Source: Armatimonadota bacterium (GTDB taxonomy: Bacteria; Armatimonadota; Hebobacteria; CAIYQO01). Taken from it: a DNA stretch of 26,273 bases. The notes beneath the pieces are model-generated. The model made no database searches and had not been told where the DNA came from. It saw nothing but the letters and a program-made list of their open reading frames with translations. Positions 601-24,628 of the stretch are shown in pieces. A program made the translations under genes and the position numbers. The stretch lies in assembly GCA_038248345.1 (NCBI GenBank), contig JBBRXO010000026.1, positions 1 through 26,273 of the forward strand. Direction: 5' to 3'. The first letter of the stretch is position 1. Each line of letters starts with the position of its first letter.

Positions 601-693
601 TTTGCCTGGAAGTGACATCATATTCGTAAACGTCAAACTCTCCCCATCTTATTGAGAGGAAAAAAGCAGATATGTGACTGTTGCCGCGGGTTG

Positions 694-1002
694 ATCGCCC
701 GCGGCAGCAGCCTGGCCGGCCCGCACCGCGACGACCTGCGCCAGTTCGGCTCGCAAGGCGAGCAGCGCACGGCCGCGCTGGCGCTGCGCGTGGCGGAGTT
801 CGAGCTGCAAAACAAGCTGCTAAGCGAACCGCCGCTACTCTTATTGGACGACATCCTCAGCGAGCTGGACCGCACCCGCCGCGCCGCCCTCCTGGCCCCC
901 ATGGCGCAGGTGATAGTCACCACCACCGACGTAGACGCCCTCGGCCTCCCGCCCCACGCGGATGTGCATCAGTATCGGGTCTGCGGGGGTGGGGTGGGGT
1001 AG
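694..1002 (+). pseudogene. recF: Orphan 3' fragment of recF (about 100 codons) with an internal deletion
   Basis: IARGSSLAGPHRDDL-RQFGSQGEQRTAALALRVAE...PLLLLDDILSELDRTRR...QVIVTTT contains the RecF signature and Walker B region. The N-terminal Walker A region is absent, and the roughly 9-10 residues normally between GPHRDDL and FGSQG are missing. Confidence 0.85.
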
Positions 1003-1013
1003 AGTCACCGGAA

Positions 1014-1042
1014 TTGCATATTTCCGCTGTTACTGATAATCT
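1014..1042 (+). promoter_or_regulatory. Sigma70-type promoter, probably giving a leaderless mRNA for the DUF488 cassette
   Basis: TTGCAT (1014-1019), 17-nt spacer, extended -10 TG-a-TAATCT (1034-1042), ATG 6 nt later at 1049, no Shine-Dalgarno. Confidence 0.55.
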
Positions 1043-1048
1043 TAGCAT

Positions 1049-1945
1049 ATGATTTTTGAACGCCAAAAACGATTGCTCGCGTTATTGGACACACTTGGCG
1101 GTGAGATCAGCAACCTGGATTACCAGAAATTGCTCTTTCTCTTCTGTTATCAAGTCGAGGAATCCCCTACCTATGAATTTGTGCCGTACAAGTTCGGTGG
1201 CTTTTCTTTCACCTCGTACGCAGATAAACGCCGTCTGATTGAACAGGGGTTTCTCGTCAATGATGAGCGAATCTGGTGCCTGACTCCGCTGGGGAGAAGC
1301 AATGCTGCTGTCGCCCCGCAAGTTCAGTCAAAGATGGCCGGCTTCGCGCAGCATTACGCTGATTTACGCGGTGACAAGCTGGTGGCAAAGGTATACCGCC
1401 AATATCCGTACCACGCGATAAATAGCGAGATTGCAGCGCGGGTACTGGCGGGCGATCCGGCTCGTTTACAGGCTATTGAGCAGGCACGACCGCAACATCA
1501 TATCCCAGGTATCTGCACGATAGGTTATGAAGGTCGTTCACTGGAAGGCTACCTGAATATACTGATACGCTCCGGTGTATCAATTCTGTGCGATGTGCGA
1601 AAAAATCCACTTAGCCGGAAATATGGATTCTCCAAGGGTACCCTGAGTAATGCCTGCAGTGGAGTCGGAATAATCTATATGCATCTACCCGAGTTGGGCA
1701 TCGCCACTGAAGAACGGCGAAATCTAGTCACGCAGGCGGATTATGACGCCTTGTTTGAAACCTACCGAAGTAACACCCTGCCACAACAGACGGTGGCCTT
1801 AATGAGTATCAAAGAGCTGGTAGCCCACGGTAATTACCTGGCCTTAACATGTTATGAAGCAGACGCACGCCAGTGCCACCGCCAATGCGTCGCTGAAGAA
1901 TTAGAAAAACTGTACGGAACAACATTCATACCGGATCAACTCTGA
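1049..1945 (+). CDS. DUF488-domain protein with an N-terminal winged-helix (Panacea/SocA-like) region
   Basis: The C-terminal half carries DUF488 motifs CTIGYEG, ILCDVRKNPLSRKYGFSK, YMHLPELG and ALTCYEADARQCHR. The N-terminal half has QKLLFL...YEFVPYKFGGFS, resembling the QKLxY...F...YGP pattern of DUF4065-like domains. Confidence 0.85.
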   Translation: MIFERQKRLLALLDTLGGEISNLDYQKLLFLFCYQVEESPTYEFVPYKFGGFSFTSYADKRRLIEQGFLVNDERIWCLTPLGRSNAAVAPQVQSKMAGFAQHYADLRGDKLVAKVYRQYPYHAINSEIAARVLAGDPARLQAIEQARPQHHIPGICTIGYEGRSLEGYLNILIRSGVSILCDVRKNPLSRKYGFSKGTLSNACSGVGIIYMHLPELGIATEERRNLVTQADYDALFETYRSNTLPQQTVALMSIKELVAHGNYLALTCYEADARQCHRQCVAEELEKLYGTTFIPDQL

Positions 1946-1957
1946 ATGGAGTAGAGT

Positions 1958-2797
1958 ATGCCGAAAGAGCGCATTCTTATTACGGTTAAAACATATCCTG
2001 ATTTGTCGGAATCATACGGTGAGACGGTATGCACTGCCGGTATTCGCGAGGATGGATCGTGGGTGCGGATATATCCAGTCCCATTTCGTAGACTAAATGA
2101 AGAGCAGCAGTATAAAAAATTCGACTGGATTGATTGCGAATTAATTAAAAATCGCAAAGACCAGCGGCCCGAATCATATCGCCCAATCAATGAAAATCAA
2201 TTTGATCCAGTTGGTCATATTGGCACCAATAATAACTGGCAGGAACGCCGAAAGCTAGTACTTCAAGCATCGCATGTCTATACATGTAGGCAGACGTTGA
2301 TTGATGCTGCTAAATCGAACACAATGTCACTTGCGATTTTTAAGCCGACACGGATTATTAGATTTTTTTGGAAAGGACAAACTGAGAGAGAATGGGATCC
2401 TTCTAAAATTCATGCCATGCGAAACCCGGCTCAGATTGACTTGTTTGAGGAGGAGCAATGGCGAAAAACATTCCAGATTATTCCCAAGTTACCTTATCGC
2501 TTCTTCTATCAATTTGAAGATGAAAATGGAAAAACAAGTACAATGCAAATATTTGACTGGGAAATCGGCGCACTATATTGGAATTGCTTACGCAATACCA
2601 ATGGGAATGAAATGATTGCCTTGGAAAAAGTTCGCTTGAAGTACGAAGACGAATTTATGCAAAAAGACCTGCACTTCTTCTTGGGTACAACAAAGAAGAA
2701 TCATCGTAAAGCTCCTAATCCATGGACAATCATCGGCGTATTCCCGATACCATATGAACAGCAAATTCCAGAAGAGCAGCAGATCCCCCTGTTCTAA
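1958..2797 (+). CDS. Uncharacterised DUF488-partner protein (possibly dual-OB-fold-like nucleic-acid binder)
   Basis: 279-aa ORF 12 nt after the DUF488 stop, with a GGAG SD. Motifs ILITVKTYP, ETVCTAG, WVRIYPVPFR, DQRPES, DWEIGALY and LHFFLGT. Visibly AT-rich. Confidence 0.75.
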   Translation: MPKERILITVKTYPDLSESYGETVCTAGIREDGSWVRIYPVPFRRLNEEQQYKKFDWIDCELIKNRKDQRPESYRPINENQFDPVGHIGTNNNWQERRKLVLQASHVYTCRQTLIDAAKSNTMSLAIFKPTRIIRFFWKGQTEREWDPSKIHAMRNPAQIDLFEEEQWRKTFQIIPKLPYRFFYQFEDENGKTSTMQIFDWEIGALYWNCLRNTNGNEMIALEKVRLKYEDEFMQKDLHFFLGTTKKNHRKAPNPWTIIGVFPIPYEQQIPEEQQIPLF

Positions 2798-2808
2798 CCC
2801 AAAACACC

Positions 2809-2857
2809 AAAACCCCCGCCCACCGGTTTACACCGGTGGGCGGGGGTTTTATTTTTT
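2809..2857. terminator. Bidirectional intrinsic terminator between convergent genes
   Basis: Perfect 19-bp inverted repeat AAAACCCCCGCCCACCGGT (2809-2827), loop TTAC, ACCGGTGGGCGGGGGTTTT (2832-2850), followed by ATTTTTT. T-runs are present on both strands. Confidence 0.9.
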
Positions 2858-2874: not shown

Positions 2875-4047
2875 CTATTTGTGGCGGTTGTGTAGTTCCT
2901 GGATCAGGGCACGGCCGATTTCGTCGCGCTGGATCTGGTTGGTGCCTTCGTAGATCTGGGTTATTTTGGCGTCGCGCATGTATTTTTCGATGGGGTATTC
3001 GCGCATGTAGCCGTGGCCGCCGTACACCTGGATGGCGTCGGTGGTCACCTGCATGGCCATATCAGAGGCGAAGCATTTGCTCATGGCGCTGTAGAGCGTG
3101 TAGCGCTGGCCGGGGTTGGCGTCGATGTGGCGGGCGGTGGCGTATACCAGTGCGCGGGAGGCTTCTACCTTCATGGCCATGTCGGCGAGGAAGAAGCGCA
3201 GGCCCTGGAAGCTGCTGACCGGGACGCCGAACTGCTTGCGGTTGTTGGCGAACTCCACTGCCAGGTCAAGCGCACCGGCGGCAATGCCTACCGCCTGGGC
3301 GGCGACACCCGGGCGCGAGAGATCGAAGGTCTTCATGGCGGTGACGAAGCCGGTGCCCTCTTTGCCGAGAAGCTGGTCTTTATGAATGCGGCAATCCTGG
3401 AAGACCAGCTCGCAGGTGGCGCTGGCGCGGATACCGAGTTTATCTTCTTTCTTGCCGAAGGTGAAGCCGGGGGTGCCTTTTTCCACGATGAAAGCGGACA
3501 TACCACGGGCGCCTTTCTCCGGGTTGGTAATGGCGAAGACGGTATATATTTCGGCGACATCGCCGTTGGTAATCCACTGCTTGGTACCATTAAGGATGTA
3601 GTAATCGCCATCTTTCACCGCGCGGGTGGTGAGACCAGCTACGTTGGAGCCGGCAGAGGCTTCGGTGAGACCAAAGGCGGCCAGCTTGCGTCCGCTGGCG
3701 ATCTCCGGCAGATATTTCTCTTTCTGCTCTTCGGAACCGCTGACGATGATGGGGATGGTCCCCAGACCGGTAGCAGCAAAGGCCAGTGAGATACCGCCGC
3801 ACGCCTTGGAGAGCGTCTCGGTCACCAATACCATGTTCATGTAAGGAGTGGAGCCGCCGAGGCCACCGTATTTCTCGTCGATATATACACCGCACAGGTC
3901 AGCGGCACCCATCGCTTTGATGACTTCCCAGGGGAATTCGCCGGTTTCATCGCAATGAGCGGATATCGGGCGAATTTTCTTTTCGGCGATTTCATGCGCG
4001 CAATCGCGGATGAATATCTGTTCTTCGGACAAGCCATAATCGAGCAT
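2875..4047 (-). CDS. Acyl-CoA dehydrogenase (butyryl-CoA dehydrogenase-like)
   Basis: AFGLTEASAGSN, LNGTKQWITNG, KEDKLGIRASAT, RKQFG and GGHGYMREYPIEKYMRDAKITQIYEGTNQIQ (catalytic Glu). SD AGGAG. Confidence 0.95.
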   Translation of the reverse strand: MLDYGLSEEQIFIRDCAHEIAEKKIRPISAHCDETGEFPWEVIKAMGAADLCGVYIDEKYGGLGGSTPYMNMVLVTETLSKACGGISLAFAATGLGTIPIIVSGSEEQKEKYLPEIASGRKLAAFGLTEASAGSNVAGLTTRAVKDGDYYILNGTKQWITNGDVAEIYTVFAITNPEKGARGMSAFIVEKGTPGFTFGKKEDKLGIRASATCELVFQDCRIHKDQLLGKEGTGFVTAMKTFDLSRPGVAAQAVGIAAGALDLAVEFANNRKQFGVPVSSFQGLRFFLADMAMKVEASRALVYATARHIDANPGQRYTLYSAMSKCFASDMAMQVTTDAIQVYGGHGYMREYPIEKYMRDAKITQIYEGTNQIQRDEIGRALIQELHNRHK

Positions 4048-5153: not shown

Positions 5154-5285
5154 GTATCCCGCGCCCGCTGTGGCGCGTTATTGTCAGTAAATACGCGCCC
5201 GCTGTGGCGCGTTATTGTCAGTAAATACGCACCCGCTGTGGCGCGTTATTGTCAGCAAATACGCGCCACGGCGGGCGCGGGCTAC
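5154..5285. repeat. REP doublet whose left arm plus spacer is expanded into three tandem 34-bp units
   Basis: Unit CGCGCCCGCTGTGGCGCGTTATTGTCAGTAAATA occurs at 5160, 5194 and 5228 (third copy has 2 substitutions). The right arm 5262-5285 is the near-exact reverse complement of 5154-5177 and ends in CTAC (GTAG on the minus strand). Confidence 0.85.
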
Positions 5286-5663: not shown

Positions 5664-6338
5664 ATGCTACCGTACCGTGACAATAATCCGAGCCGGAGTT
5701 TTCCGGTGGTCACTATCACGCTTATACTCATTAATGTGCTGGTCTTCCTCTATATGATCGGCCTGGGTGAGGAGGGGGCGGATGCTTTTACGCAGCAATT
5801 CGCCATGCATTCGCGTGACTTTACGAGTAATATCCCGATTACCCATCATGCGATAACTTCAGTTTTTACCGCTATGTTCCTGCACGCCTCGTGGATGCAC
5901 CTGCTGGGTAATATGCTTTATCTGTGGATTTTTGGCGACAACATCGAGGATTCCATGGGGCCAGTGCGCTTCATCATCTTCTACCTGCTCTGCGGGGTGG
6001 TGGCCGCCGTGGCGCAGATCGTCAGTGCACCCCATGTGGCGATGACGATGCTGGGAGCCAGCGGTGCTATCGCCGGGGTGCTGGGGGCCTACCTGGTGCG
6101 TTTCCCCAAAGCGCAGGTAGATACGTGCCTTTTCATCATCATCTTCTTCACTACTGTTCGCCTGCCCGCCATCCTGGTACTTGGTTTCTGGTTTGTGCTG
6201 CAATTATTTAATGGCACCAACAAGAACGGAGGCGAGGGCGGTGTCGCATATTGGGCACACATAGGTGGGTTTGTTGCCGGTATGATTCTAATATATATAT
6301 TTGCGAAGAAAAGCCAGTCGGAATTAAATGGCTATTAG
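5664..6338 (+). CDS. Rhomboid family intramembrane serine protease
   Basis: AMFLHASWMHLLGNMLYLWIFGDNIED, catalytic GASG, AYWAHIGGF (catalytic His), multiple TM helices. Confidence 0.95.
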   Translation: MLPYRDNNPSRSFPVVTITLILINVLVFLYMIGLGEEGADAFTQQFAMHSRDFTSNIPITHHAITSVFTAMFLHASWMHLLGNMLYLWIFGDNIEDSMGPVRFIIFYLLCGVVAAVAQIVSAPHVAMTMLGASGAIAGVLGAYLVRFPKAQVDTCLFIIIFFTTVRLPAILVLGFWFVLQLFNGTNKNGGEGGVAYWAHIGGFVAGMILIYIFAKKSQSELNGY

Positions 6339-9300
6339 CGGGGTACCGATGATGAATTTCGATCCGGTATTTTCAGCATCAAGCGCGGAACCCATACACG
6401 GAGTAGCCTCCGCCGAAGTGTGGTGTGCTGGCTTGCCTGGCCAACAACTGACCACCCCCGGAGCGATAATCGCCGTGCATCTCGCCGGGCTGGGCGGGGT
6501 ATCACAGACCTTCGGGCGCAATACCGGCAAGATTATCCTCCACGGGGTACTCACTCGTGCCCATGCTGTGCTCCCTGCTGGATCGGTTCTCTTACTCAAT
6601 AACGCCAGCATGATCTTCATCTGGGCGCTACATGCCGATGAGGAGTATGCTGTTTCCCTCCGTGAGCATCTGCGACGCAATATCTGCGCCACCCCGATAG
6701 AGTTGCCGAACGGCGAATTGATATACCCCCGGCTGATCTTCGCCCATTTACTGGTCACCGCGCCTGTTGATGCCAATCTGGCCTTCCAGCAGACCGAGCG
6801 GGTGCTGACGCAAAGCCCGGAATTCCTGGCTCCACCGCAAGCGATGTCACAATCACTGCCCGCCAATGAAGCGTTCGACAACCGCCTTAATGCGCTGCGC
6901 CTCTTTGGCCGCAAAGGGATCATGGAGCGGGTGATCAGTCACTTGCAGTTGCCTGCTCCCCATCCGGCCACGGTGATTATCTACGGCCCCCACCAGGTGG
7001 GCAAGGATCGTCTCTTGCACGAAGTGGATGAGCTCTTACATAAGCATCACCTGCCGCTCGCGCATCATTCCTGTGTGGCCCGGGACAGTGTAGTGCCGGG
7101 GACGCTACTCACCAAAATCCTACAGCAATTCCTCGCCGCTTTCCCTGCGGGGGTGCTCCGCCCGCGGCTGGCCGCGTTGCTGCTGCGCTACCCGTGGCTG
7201 GCAGCGCGTTTCACCGGCCTGGGGGAGAGGAATGCGATAGTCCGCCCGGCGAATATCGACGAATTAACTGCCGGTCTGCATGAGCTGCTGCGTGCCCTCG
7301 CCCAAATGTTGCCACATATCGCTGTAGTGGATGAACTGCAGCACGCAGACGCGCTTTCGTTACTCGAGCTGGCAGCGTTGCAACAGCGAAAAGACCATGC
7401 GCTCCGGCTGGTTGTCAGCGTGGAACACTCCGAGGAACAGTTGCCGCCCGCCTTTCGAGAATTTTTGTACGCGAAACCGTTGGTCATCCGCCTTCCGTGG
7501 TACACACGCGCCCAGGTAAAAGAGTACCTCCACTGTTTCTCCGCCACGCTAGCCACTGAGGAGGTGCTGGAAGAGCTGTACCAGTCCTCGCAAGGGGCAC
7601 CGCTGGCGCTGGAGGAGACGCTGACCACCTGGCTGCAGGAAGGCAAGTTACAGTTCCAGCATAATCAGTGGATAGCCATATCAGCAGTGCCGGCGCCGCC
7701 GTCCCGGTGGGAGAGCAAGCCCACCGTCCAGGAAGAAGTTGACCTTAGCCCGGTGACCGCAGATTTGCTCGCGCCCAAGGAGATGGAACGCCGGGTAAAT
7801 ATCTTGCTCGCTATCCGTATGCTCGGTATGCACCTGCGGTTATATCCCGACAATAGCTCAATGGTGGTGAATTCGCTGCATAAAACGCAGCAATTGTTGG
7901 AGGAATTGCCGGATTTTTATGCCAAAATTCTCATCTCCTATAATGATGGAGTACTGGCTATTGATGGCCACCCACTTTCGCAACGTTACTTGCAGTTGCC
8001 GCTCCAGGAGGTTCGCAACTGGTTCCAATATGGCAGCATCGGCGAATTACAGCTGATGCGCGGTATCACCAGTGCTGAACTCACGCTCTGCTTGCGCACA
8101 CTGGCCGGCTATGATGATACATCGGAGCGCCCCCTCATCGAGATACTGCGCGAGCTGCCGCTGCCCCATGTGCGTTGCTTGTCGTTGTATGAGATCACCC
8201 AACCGATGCAGATAGAGCCGGGGGATAAGATAACTGATGCGGAGAAATTGCTGGCAACCTTCACGCAGATTCTGCACAGTGAGGCAACTCCCACTGCCCC
8301 GCTGGTGCAGCAGCTATTAGTGGAATTCTCCATCGCTCCCATCGCCGAGCGGCGATCCTTGCTGGGATATCTGCTCCAACTGGTTCGTTCACATCAGGTG
8401 CCCGTCATCCCTGCCACCCTAAGTTATATTTTCGTCCAACGGCTGGACTTCGAGGATGACCCGGTGGCGCTGGCGGAGCAGCTGGTCATCCTGGAACATG
8501 CCTTCACGCAGCAGCTGGGCCTGCACGTCTGGCGAGATGCCATCACTATCCTTGAGGCGGTACACCATCGGTTGGCGATAGAACAGGAGGAAATTATCCG
8601 GCAGGCGTTGCTGGCATTCCTAATCTCCGTCGGCAATCCCACGGCGCTGGCCCCGCTGCTCTATTACCGCTCGAATGAGAGTGAATTGCCGGAAGGAGCC
8701 CGACGTATTTACGAAACCCTCGGGAAGCTGGCTTTCGATTCTCTCGCCTATACCATCAAGATGACTGACCAGCTGGATTCATATCCGCATATGCTAAATG
8801 CATTGCACCTCTTCCAGAAGCCGGAGCTGGATGAGCTGGCGCAGACGCTCCGTGACCCCGGCACCCGAATGACGGTCATCAATCTGCTGCACGCCCTGGC
8901 TGCCGCTGGCACCCTGGGCGCACTGGGCGCTATTGAAGAGAAGTTGGCGCACCCTGACCCCGAAGTGCGCATCGCCGCCCTGGATGCGGCGGTTAATATC
9001 GCCGGACAAAAGGTGGCCACCCAAGTAGTGAAAGCGCTGGCCGACCCGGATTGTAAGGTACGTGCGCGGGCCGCTGCGGTGGCGGGGCGGTGTCAGAATG
9101 ACCAGGTGCTGGATTCCCTGACAAAACTTGCGCAAAAGGATGAAGATGAAGAGGTGCTGTGTGCCGTCTGTCAGGCGCTGGGGCTTTTTAATGATGACCG
9201 TGCCCGGGCAGAGTTGCTCATACAATTACATCCCACCGGCCTCCGCACTTTACACAAACATAGCGAAAAGATACGTAGCGCCGCCTGCCAGGCGCTGGCC

Positions 9301-9405
9301 AGCCACCGCGCTGACATGGCCGTTCTCAACGCGCTGGAGAGTGCCGCAACCGGCAATTTTCCACATTTGAGCATAGCAGCCCGCCGCGTCCTCCGGGGGG
9401 AGTAA
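6328..9405 (+). CDS. Large multidomain signalling-like protein: degenerate GGDEF-like domain + AAA/STAND-like NTPase + helical domain + HEAT repeats (start may be 6349 or 6352)
   Basis: LFGRK...VIIYGPHQVGKD (Walker A-like), AVVDELQHAD (Walker B), SQGAPLALEE (GNPL-like), and C-terminal HEAT repeats LAHPDPEVRIAA, LADPDCKVRARAA, DEDEEVLCAVCQALG. Confidence 0.8.
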   Translation: MAISGVPMMNFDPVFSASSAEPIHGVASAEVWCAGLPGQQLTTPGAIIAVHLAGLGGVSQTFGRNTGKIILHGVLTRAHAVLPAGSVLLLNNASMIFIWALHADEEYAVSLREHLRRNICATPIELPNGELIYPRLIFAHLLVTAPVDANLAFQQTERVLTQSPEFLAPPQAMSQSLPANEAFDNRLNALRLFGRKGIMERVISHLQLPAPHPATVIIYGPHQVGKDRLLHEVDELLHKHHLPLAHHSCVARDSVVPGTLLTKILQQFLAAFPAGVLRPRLAALLLRYPWLAARFTGLGERNAIVRPANIDELTAGLHELLRALAQMLPHIAVVDELQHADALSLLELAALQQRKDHALRLVVSVEHSEEQLPPAFREFLYAKPLVIRLPWYTRAQVKEYLHCFSATLATEEVLEELYQSSQGAPLALEETLTTWLQEGKLQFQHNQWIAISAVPAPPSRWESKPTVQEEVDLSPVTADLLAPKEMERRVNILLAIRMLGMHLRLYPDNSSMVVNSLHKTQQLLEELPDFYAKILISYNDGVLAIDGHPLSQRYLQLPLQEVRNWFQYGSIGELQLMRGITSAELTLCLRTLAGYDDTSERPLIEILRELPLPHVRCLSLYEITQPMQIEPGDKITDAEKLLATFTQILHSEATPTAPLVQQLLVEFSIAPIAERRSLLGYLLQLVRSHQVPVIPATLSYIFVQRLDFEDDPVALAEQLVILEHAFTQQLGLHVWRDAITILEAVHHRLAIEQEEIIRQALLAFLISVGNPTALAPLLYYRSNESELPEGARRIYETLGKLAFDSLAYTIKMTDQLDSYPHMLNALHLFQKPELDELAQTLRDPGTRMTVINLLHALAAAGTLGALGAIEEKLAHPDPEVRIAALDAAVNIAGQKVATQVVKALADPDCKVRARAAAVAGRCQNDQVLDSLTKLAQKDEDEEVLCAVCQALGLFNDDRARAELLIQLHPTGLRTLHKHSEKIRSAACQALASHRADMAVLNALESAATGNFPHLSIAARRVLRGE

Positions 9406-24293: not shown

Positions 24294-24590
24294 TCATTTG
24301 TGATAGTCGATGATCTCGATTATCAGTAAGTAGTTCCCCTGCTTATCCTGTTCAATAGTGAAGATCAGGCGGTATTGATCATTGAGTCGAATGGCATGTT
24401 GGCCTTCGCGATCACCACGAAGCTTTTCCATGCGTTTACCTTTTAGCGCTCGGATATCACGCTCATCCTTCGCCGTCGCGATAATTGCCATAACACGAAA
24501 AAATGCCTTAATTACACTGTACTGGTACTTCAAACTGACACCAGTCTGATATAAATTCACCAGGTCATGGTTTTTAAAAACAAAACGCAT
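24294..24590 (-). CDS. higB: HigB toxin (RelE/ParE superfamily mRNA interferase)
   Basis: MRFVFKN...EKLRGDREGQHAIRLNDQYRLIF...IIDYH. The toxin is upstream of the antitoxin, as in higBA. ATG 24590 follows SD AGGGTG. Confidence 0.92.
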   Translation of the reverse strand: MRFVFKNHDLVNLYQTGVSLKYQYSVIKAFFRVMAIIATAKDERDIRALKGKRMEKLRGDREGQHAIRLNDQYRLIFTIEQDKQGNYLLIIEIIDYHK

Positions 24591-24628
24591 TAAAAACACC
24601 CTATCACGGAATCACCTAACCTATGTTT

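Follow-up and report, generated by a model that had tools for sequence, protein, structure and literature searches.

Proteins of the DUF488 family are reportedly grouped in a RapZ-C/DUF488/DUF4326 clade for which DNA-end processing in virus-host conflicts is said to have been predicted, and their association with proteins of the oligonucleotide/oligosaccharide-binding (OB) fold is likewise said to have been described, with the dual-OB protein DuOB (Pfam PF22557) as the partner. Here, we analyse a two-gene cassette encoding a DUF488 protein (A) and a predicted double-OB protein (B) on a contig of an Armatimonadota bacterium (JBBRXO010000026.1, assembly GCA_038248345.1). The window is this entire contig of 26,273 bp, which belongs to a draft genome of 2.98 Mb (G000). 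Both proteins fall into families that PADLOC lists together as the candidate defence system PDC-M19. The PDC set comprises 145 candidates retrieved via 'guilt-by-embedding' in BREX, DISARM and type I restriction-modification (R-M) systems, which in the available part of the preprint the authors themselves call untested (Payne et al., bioRxiv 10.1101/2024.01.29.577857). Later literature, as far as its accessible text goes, treats PDC entries as unvalidated.

Several other described proteins bear on the two families. Antitoxins with the DUF4065 domain are presented as homologous to the C-terminal domain of DarG, with work on the mimicry of single-stranded DNA (ssDNA) cited, in the available portion of PMC13621843; DarG itself is credited with a dual antitoxin action in the accessible text of PMC8832971, the source consulted also for the Panacea domain (DUF4065, PanA/SocA). 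Archaeal fusions of a ParB CTPase and a helix-turn-helix (HTH) to DUF488 are described in the part at hand of another preprint, one of them having bound CTP (bioRxiv 10.1101/2025.10.10.680097). In turn, the bacterial motif for binding to the β sliding clamp is given as 'QL[S/D]LF or more generally QxxLF' in the sections available of PMC12309361.

Identity, pairing and origin of the cassette

Protein A matches the PADLOC model PDC-M19A (PDLC04505) with E 1.8e-101, residues 3-289 aligning to profile positions 2-285 of 294, and protein B matches PDC-M19B (PDLC04508) with E 1.3e-111, residues 1-270 aligning to profile positions 1-266 of 269. With both models matched and the genes adjacent, the locus shows the family membership and the adjacency recorded in PADLOC-DB v2, and the cassette is almost certainly PDC-M19. 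The local copy differs in that it is not embedded in R-M, BREX or DISARM genes and in that its B protein carries a 6-residue duplication in the tail. A preliminary description of the locus, made from the sequence alone, had put it forward as a candidate uncharacterised system and had suggested a comparison with PADLOC; this comparison recovered both proteins over their full length, and the pair turned out to be listed already. Apart from the claim to novelty, that description proved largely right, with its points on a promoter and on a Panacea-like head left unconfirmed. What the window holds is a genuine, intact and, by composition and distribution, horizontally acquired member of a catalogued gene pair, which is not new as a pair. 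Our literature search found no paper naming PDC-M19, and among the titles and abstract openings listed for the DUF488 literature none dealt with the A-B pair. The cassette itself consists of the following features:

1049..1945, plus strand: gene A (PDC-M19A), 298 aa
1850..1882, plus strand: DUF488 motif C268-x-E270-x5-C276-H277-R278 of A, invariant, likely active site
1946..1957, plus strand: A-B spacer of 12 nt containing GGAG (1948-1951), the ribosome-binding site of B as read from the sequence
1958..2797, plus strand: gene B (PDC-M19B), 279 aa
2762..2797, plus strand: duplicated B tail QQIPEE-QQIPLF, a 6-residue insertion relative to 34 other aligned B sequences
2780..2794, plus strand: QIPLF, a QxxLF motif of the β-clamp-binding type, B residues 275-279

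As first described, A and B are real open reading frames (ORFs) on the same strand separated by 12 nt, and the GGAG sits 6 nt ahead of the B ATG.

We found an A homologue directly upstream of B and on the same strand in all 12 loci that were fetched with B, two of them truncated by a contig end. Across 401 sampled genomes of the phylum, for which A-B distances were obtained by coordinate comparison, B occurs in 28 genomes including the present one (about 7%), belonging to 24 of 207 genera, and DUF488 in general in 146. Each of the 27 other B-carrying genomes has a DUF488 match no farther than about 100 nt from B; together with the 12 loci, this bears out the conserved pairing expected from the preliminary description. 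The layout is less uniform, as 12 of the 27 genomes possess a full-length co-directional A, three a co-directional partner matching in its DUF488 part only, and 12 a convergent partner that again matches in the DUF488 part only. Thus, the partnership is constant, and the head of A and the gene orientation are variable. At E<=0.001, B pools 6089 clusters and A 5417 clusters of a protein collection at 90% identity, and both families span many phyla at 60-70% identity. The present genome has a second DUF488 match (G000:C47:3814-4221, to the DUF488 part of the A profile only, E 1.3e-14), and similar weak matches were found on contig C95 of the sister genome G001 and in two genomes of the same family; the G000:C47 match has probably been inherited vertically, as a paralogue with no link to the cassette.

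The GC content of the cassette is 0.456, as opposed to a genome mean of 0.540 (standard deviation 0.041, windows of 1.75 kb), and only 2.2% of 10,743 such windows are as low. Similarly, GC at third codon positions is 0.52 in A and 0.41 in B, compared with 0.78 in the flanking cimA and 0.74 in the flanking acyl-CoA dehydrogenase (ACAD) gene, in keeping with the AT-richness noted previously. None of the 11 same-family genomes was found to carry B, and matches in three of 40 relatives were merely 35-41% identical. Near-identical B proteins (E ~1e-141 to 1e-146) are restricted to three genomes of another, distant family. The composition, the absence of B from the 11 same-family genomes and the position of its closest relatives together support an acquisition of the cassette by horizontal transfer, as had been proposed.

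Predicted structures and conserved residues of the two proteins

In protein A, modelled with a predicted local distance difference test score (pLDDT) of 94.2, residues 165-284 match Pfam DUF488 (PF04343) with E 6.5e-25 and 88.6 bits (cut-off 22.2). The DUF488-N3a model (PF22751) scores below its cut-off (25.1 bits vs 27, residues 228-287 only), and this label is present as a precomputed assignment on some close A homologues. In fold comparisons, residues 151-298 align with Cys-phosphatases (laforin 4r30, Z 9.1; KAP 1fpz, Z 8.8; PRL-1, Z 8.5; SsoPTP, Z 8.4-8.5) and also with the N-domains of tetrapyrrole and diphthine methylases (Z 8-9.9), all Z values for this domain being barely above the fold tool's caution line of 8. 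Hence, A shares with the DUF488 proteins of the rhodanese-phosphatase superfamily both the domain, above cut-off, and a Cys-phosphatase-like fold.

The motif C268-x-E270-x5-C276-H277-R278 is retained without change in 36 close A sequences and in 21 sequences including divergent pairs. The alignment of 36 A proteins further reveals T157, G159, Y160, D182-V183-R184, S189-R190-K191 and G193-F194 as invariant, and among the polar residues D182, R184, R223, C268, E270, C276, H277 and R278 remain invariant in pairs down to 30% identity. Hence all DUF488 motifs listed in the preliminary description (TIGY, DVR, SRK.GF and C-x-E-x5-C-H-R) are present with key residues invariant in the 36 sequences, and the phosphatase fold combined with the invariant Cys motif agrees with its view of A as a Cys-dependent enzyme. 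Profiles of A and of B gave nothing significant against the PDB sequences (best E 0.052 and 0.14), such that no solved DUF488 structure is detectable by this route.

Residues 2-142 of A form a helical/winged-helix head that superposes on chain D of 7yk3, a DarTG structure from M. tuberculosis (Z 11.5, rmsd, i.e., root-mean-square deviation, 3.5 Å over 137 residues, 15% identity; Foldseek probability 1.00). The fold-search table leaves this chain unnamed, and it is taken as the DarG C-terminal domain from the available portion of PMC13621843; in the model, the head is DarG C-terminal-domain-like at the fold level only. It had previously been labelled Panacea/SocA-like. Residues 1-164 gave no match to Pfam DUF4065 (PF13274) at E<=10, the sole match being HemN_C with E 0.0011, and since the DarG C-terminal domain is the one to which DUF4065 is homologous, that label holds only indirectly, at the level of fold.

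Like DarG (DarTG, 7YK3), A fuses this domain to an enzyme domain from a family linked to nucleic-acid/ADP-ribose chemistry. Yet, A has no macrodomain by Pfam, its head stands at the N-terminus, which reverses the domain order, and the partner is an OB-fold protein instead of the DarT ADP-ribosyltransferase. As for Panacea, the head resembles its relative, the DarG C-terminal domain, but besides the missing DUF4065 match there is no toxin partner of a known type. With the archaeal ParB-HTH-DUF488 fusions, in which the DUF488 domain follows a DNA-binding head, A has in common the DUF488 domain placed behind a head, which in A is DarG-like instead of a ParB CTPase.

Protein B has no Pfam or NCBIfam family. 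Its model (pLDDT 87.6, falling to 62 in the last block) consists of two OB folds, at about residues 1-105 and 106-265, followed by a flexible C-terminal tail. The best Foldseek matches are tandem-OB DNA binders, namely RPA (8aaj, E 8e-5), HIN-200 domains (4jbm, probability 0.98), LEF-3 (7yny, probability 0.99) and CST, and VIA-align returned nearly exclusively OB folds at middling Z up to 6.4, with OB1/OB2 aligned to RPA, HIN, LEF-3, Stn1, PriB and RecO. On the strength of its two modelled OB folds, B would be of the nucleic-acid-binding type that the preliminary description had assumed for the partner of A. DuOB likewise carries two OB folds in one chain. The homologue of B in a Gordonia phage reaches 18.6 bits with the DuOB model ('dual OB-containing domain'), below its cut-off of 27, and a protein atlas points to the DuOB cluster as a weak lead for B (score 0.84). 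As B has no match to DuOB at E<=10, it represents at best a distant sister family outside the Pfam model. The papers that a literature search on this dual-OB domain brought up were all unrelated.

All three motifs previously noted in B (ETVCTAG, WVRIYP and DQRPES) are present, their key residues belonging to the set that is invariant in 35 aligned B proteins: E22, V24-C25-T26-A27, W35, R37, Y39-P40, D68, R70 and E72. The polar residues E22, C25, R37, R44, D68, R70, R97, K177 and D200 are invariant in pairs down to 30% identity.

By its QIPLF motif B is a putative clamp binder, with the motif placed at the extreme C-terminus, as in PolC (PMC12309361, available sections). Of 120 close B homologues, 109 have the pattern Qxx[LIMV][FLMIY] with its end no more than three residues from the C-terminus, against an expectation of 0.047 per tail. 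Divergent bacterial pairs supplied 19 complete tails, of which nine follow the strict pattern; by eye, five more have the hexapeptide form Q-x-x-[LM]-x-[FL], three have SLF/PLF without Q, and two show neither. The B homologue of the Sulfolobus plasmid pSOG2 (L057, 2498-3364) ends in ..SSGIDKWLQ, which presumably resembles the PCNA-binding tails of archaea, so that the B tail may track the clamp type of the host.

Borders of the cassette and the slot it occupies

The elements flanking the two genes are:

652..1002, plus strand: recF 3' remnant, C-terminal third only, left border of a variable slot
1014..1042, plus strand: proposed promoter, a weak sigma-70-like match, unconfirmed
2802..2857, both strands: bidirectional hairpin terminator, from a terminator scan on both strands

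The piece of recF to the left, recognized in the preliminary description, matches NCBIfam recF (TIGR00611) at positions 248-339 with 67-70 bits, below the cut-off of 172, and an intact recF resides on another contig of the same genome (G000:C105, 1343-2566). The remnant duplicates the 3' third of the intact gene, to whose 3' end it is 88% identical over 343 aligned nt, and the last ~100 nt compared are identical. No dnaN was identified upstream of the intact recF on C105, where the ORF begins, by eye, like that of a response regulator.

The sister genome G001 (same genus, 77% complete) retains only the last 58 nt of the remnant, with the same endpoint, and it keeps the ACAD flank with the terminator region at 88% identity; both genomes thereby keep the recF tail end as the left border of the slot. 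In G001 the slot is filled by another two-gene cassette (L034, G001:C111, 2731-4005 and 4058-4627). Its first gene encodes an HD protein (Pfam HD and HD_assoc_2; PADLOC dGTPase model, E 4.7e-14) and its second a protein of 189 aa with a match to the C-terminal portion of the PADLOC DarG model (2.8e-10). The latter is weakly similar to the PDC-M19A head (4.6e-5; hhalign E 0.0017, probability 15%) and has no Pfam DUF4065 match at E<=0.1. The G001 cassette has the look of an effector coupled with its inhibitor.

Homology between the two genomes restarts at about 2774-2777 (blastn match from 2777), i.e., within the last eight codons of B, and the aligned G001 sequence, in the same frame, gives ..HHQIPLF-stop, though this genome has no B gene. 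This junction coincides with the 6-residue duplication of the B tail, which is unique among the 35 aligned B proteins. As G001 keeps the last eight codons of B in the absence of the gene, the simplest reading, drawn from 24 nt, is that the slot already held a B gene in the common ancestor of both lineages, with in-frame exchanges of cassettes thereafter. A search for att-like direct repeats on either side of the cassette gave nothing beyond short repeats at chance level.

The terminator described earlier at 2809-2857 is indeed a strong hairpin (2809-2850; 19-20 pairs, 13 of them G-C) with a T run reaching 2857, and an inverted repeat with 26-nt arms (I1) lies at the same place. Yet, it is not private to the cassette, being common to it and the convergent ACAD gene (2875-4047, minus strand) and lying within the flank that G001 shares, where a related hairpin stands at the same position. 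At the other end, a promoter of the cassette's own had been proposed at 1014-1042. A sigma-70 scan made no promoter call there; by eye, TTGCAT is followed after 15 nt by GATAAT (or after 17 nt by TAATCT), which is a weak match that ends only ~8 nt ahead of the A ATG, a start codon preceded by no Shine-Dalgarno sequence. The regions 5' of A at 10 other loci have no motif in common, neither this site nor another, and on this ground the idea of a conserved promoter or of a leaderless start was rejected. The proposed promoter is thus at most a candidate.

Across the window, an Rfam scan found no RNA family. An ORF for a HigB-like toxin of the RelE family (24294-24599, minus strand; Pfam E 2e-11) lies in an AT-rich patch (GC 0.415), with no partner antitoxin identified. 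An intergenic tandem repeat at 5160-5267 consists of 3.2 copies of a 34-nt unit (95% match) with internal palindromic GC-rich ends and has no Rfam match. At 6328-9405, a 1025-aa protein combines an AAA_16 ATPase domain with C-terminal HEAT repeats and gives no PADLOC match at E<=1e-8.

A possible role on replicating DNA

Within 7 kb of the pair at 12 other loci, 95 ORFs were searched with PADLOC at E<=1e-8, and we found matches in eight of the 12 neighbourhoods, a count that stands without a background rate; this is in line with the association with defence genes suggested in the preliminary description. Four neighbourhoods contain established systems: a type I R gene (L004), type I R and S genes on either side of the pair (L006), a CBASS cyclase with a 4TM effector and AbiJ (L009), and a type IIG R-M gene directly upstream (L010). 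The other four (L003, L007, L011 and L012) have candidate-only matches. The matches mad3, mad8 and AriA, which fell on two ABC-transporter ATPases (L007, L008) and on QueC (L010), were dropped as housekeeping on account of the Pfam content of these proteins. At L011, a DUF5131 protein (1999-2862) comes right after the pair and overlaps the end of B, and it matches PDC-M41B and PDC-M30B with E ~1e-120.

Over their full length, both proteins match PHROG families without an assigned function (A, PHROG 14939, E 1.1e-43; B, PHROG 25907, E 3.5e-69), and B homologues occur on plasmids (23 records, 11 typed as conjugative) and in seven records of temperate Gordonia phages. On the Rhizobium plasmid pRL8, the pair adjoins genes for a toprim-DUF3991 protein, a DUF1419 protein and a large DEAD/DEAH helicase, a set that we take to be typical of plasmid leading regions. 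On pSOG2, the B homologue adjoins an integrase. In the seven Gordonia phage records, among them phage Nymphadora (L035, 3024-4828), gene 43 encodes the B homologue and overlaps with the stop codon of gene 44, the annotated immunity repressor; both lie in the lysogeny-control region, the usual place of prophage genes that protect the host. The idea that this repressor is a hidden DUF488 protein was rejected, as Pfam detects nothing but a weak HTH in it and its hhalign probability with the A profile is 0.1%.

Taken as a whole, the reading that the cassette is an intact, horizontally acquired copy of the widespread PDC-M19 pair and a likely conflict (anti-phage) module acting on replicating DNA is one on which we are evenly divided. 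That the pair has some conflict or defence role we regard as slightly favoured. The mechanism that we can formulate for it is tentative and, in its details, rather doubtful: the B tail would tether B to β clamps loaded on DNA, where its OB folds would hold ssDNA or primer-template junctions; A would be recruited to the clamp site by B, or released from it, and its catalytic cysteine would alter a nucleic-acid terminus or a sugar-phosphate adduct. This change would halt the replication of the invading DNA, with the DarG-like head of A binding B or DNA and restraining the system.

A number of observations speak against this proposal. The fold matches of B are middling (Z<=6.4, TM 0.2-0.37) and, like those of the DUF488 domain, close to the caution line of the fold tool, and in A the canonical C-x5-R phosphate loop is not conserved, the Arg five residues after C268 being variable in the 36 A sequences. 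The genes are convergent in 12 of the 27 genomes, hence A and B need not be co-expressed. In the seven Gordonia phage records B adjoins the annotated repressor, a neighbour in which no DUF488 was detected. The cassette of the window has housekeeping neighbours and no defence island around it, and at the PADLOC threshold used no defence neighbour was found at L002, L005, L008 and L013 (four of the 12 loci). Four of the eight positive neighbourhoods, in turn, depend on untested PADLOC candidates found by the same embedding logic. An identity of 60-68% between phyla, as seen in both proteins, is unusually high for immune genes, and a conserved housekeeping-like target would explain it no less well than recent spread. 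Our literature search found no experiment on this pair.

The same features can be arranged in other ways. The match of the A head to 7yk3_D, the kinship of DUF4065 antitoxins with the DarG C-terminal domain and the dual antitoxin action of DarG are compatible with a toxin-antitoxin-like pair of DarTG logic, in which B would be toxic by blocking forks on the clamp or on ssDNA and A would be a two-way antitoxin: the head would bind B, possibly as an ssDNA mimic placed in the OB groove, and the DUF488 domain would undo the lesion; phage infection would free B and abort replication. The co-directional order of A and then B, 12 nt apart, and the G001 slot, where a free-standing protein like the DarG C-terminal domain adjoins an HD enzyme, fit this scheme too. 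However, no recognisable toxin or enzyme domain was found in B by Pfam and profile searches, and the convergent partner with the DUF488 part only in 12 of the 27 genomes means that a head-dependent antitoxin cannot be general; we consider this scheme unlikely. In a repair view, the clamp-recruited ssDNA binder would bring a DUF488 end-cleaner to blocked termini at stalled forks as an accessory module for DNA repair or damage tolerance with no part in conflict. A clamp-type tail is a hallmark of repair and replication factors (PMC12309361, in its available part), both proteins are highly conserved across phyla, and housekeeping neighbours surround the pair in the window and at four of the 12 other loci. 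Against such a cellular function stand the patchy spread in the phylum and the absence from the family already given (28 of 401 and 0 of 11 genomes), the foreign composition, the replacement of the cassette in the sister genome, the carriage on mobile elements and the adjoining R-M, CBASS and Abi genes, which leave it very improbable.

That carriage could instead be the point of the pair, if it served plasmid or phage DNA in establishment, replication or anti-defence, B coating ssDNA at clamp-loaded junctions and A processing ends. The 23 plasmids and seven phage records, the pRL8 neighbours, the integrase beside B of pSOG2 and the PHROG families all suit this idea, but most copies are chromosomal, as in the 28 genomes of the phylum sample, several lie inside R-M operons of the host (L004, L006, L010), and the phage copy sits beside the repressor in a lysogeny-control region; we regard a service to mobile elements as quite improbable.

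The pair is very common, and the locus offers handles for experiments: in A the Cys/His/Arg site and the DarG-like head, and in B the polar cluster, the single invariant Cys and the clamp-type tail. The slot is a natural comparison in its own right, with two sister genomes carrying different two-gene cassettes at one place. Returning to the conflict reading in its most specific form, which we rate as rather unlikely, PDC-M19 may be an immune system that rides the sliding clamp, in which B, seated on clamps by its polymerase-style QxxLF tail, would inspect the ssDNA or primer-template junctions of foreign replicons, A would carry out a new Cys-dependent reaction on nucleic-acid ends or sugar-phosphate adducts, and the head would supply the DarTG logic of binding the partner and reversing the chemistry. 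If true, PDC-M19 would stand for a new class of defence coupled to the replisome and would provide DUF488 with its first activity.

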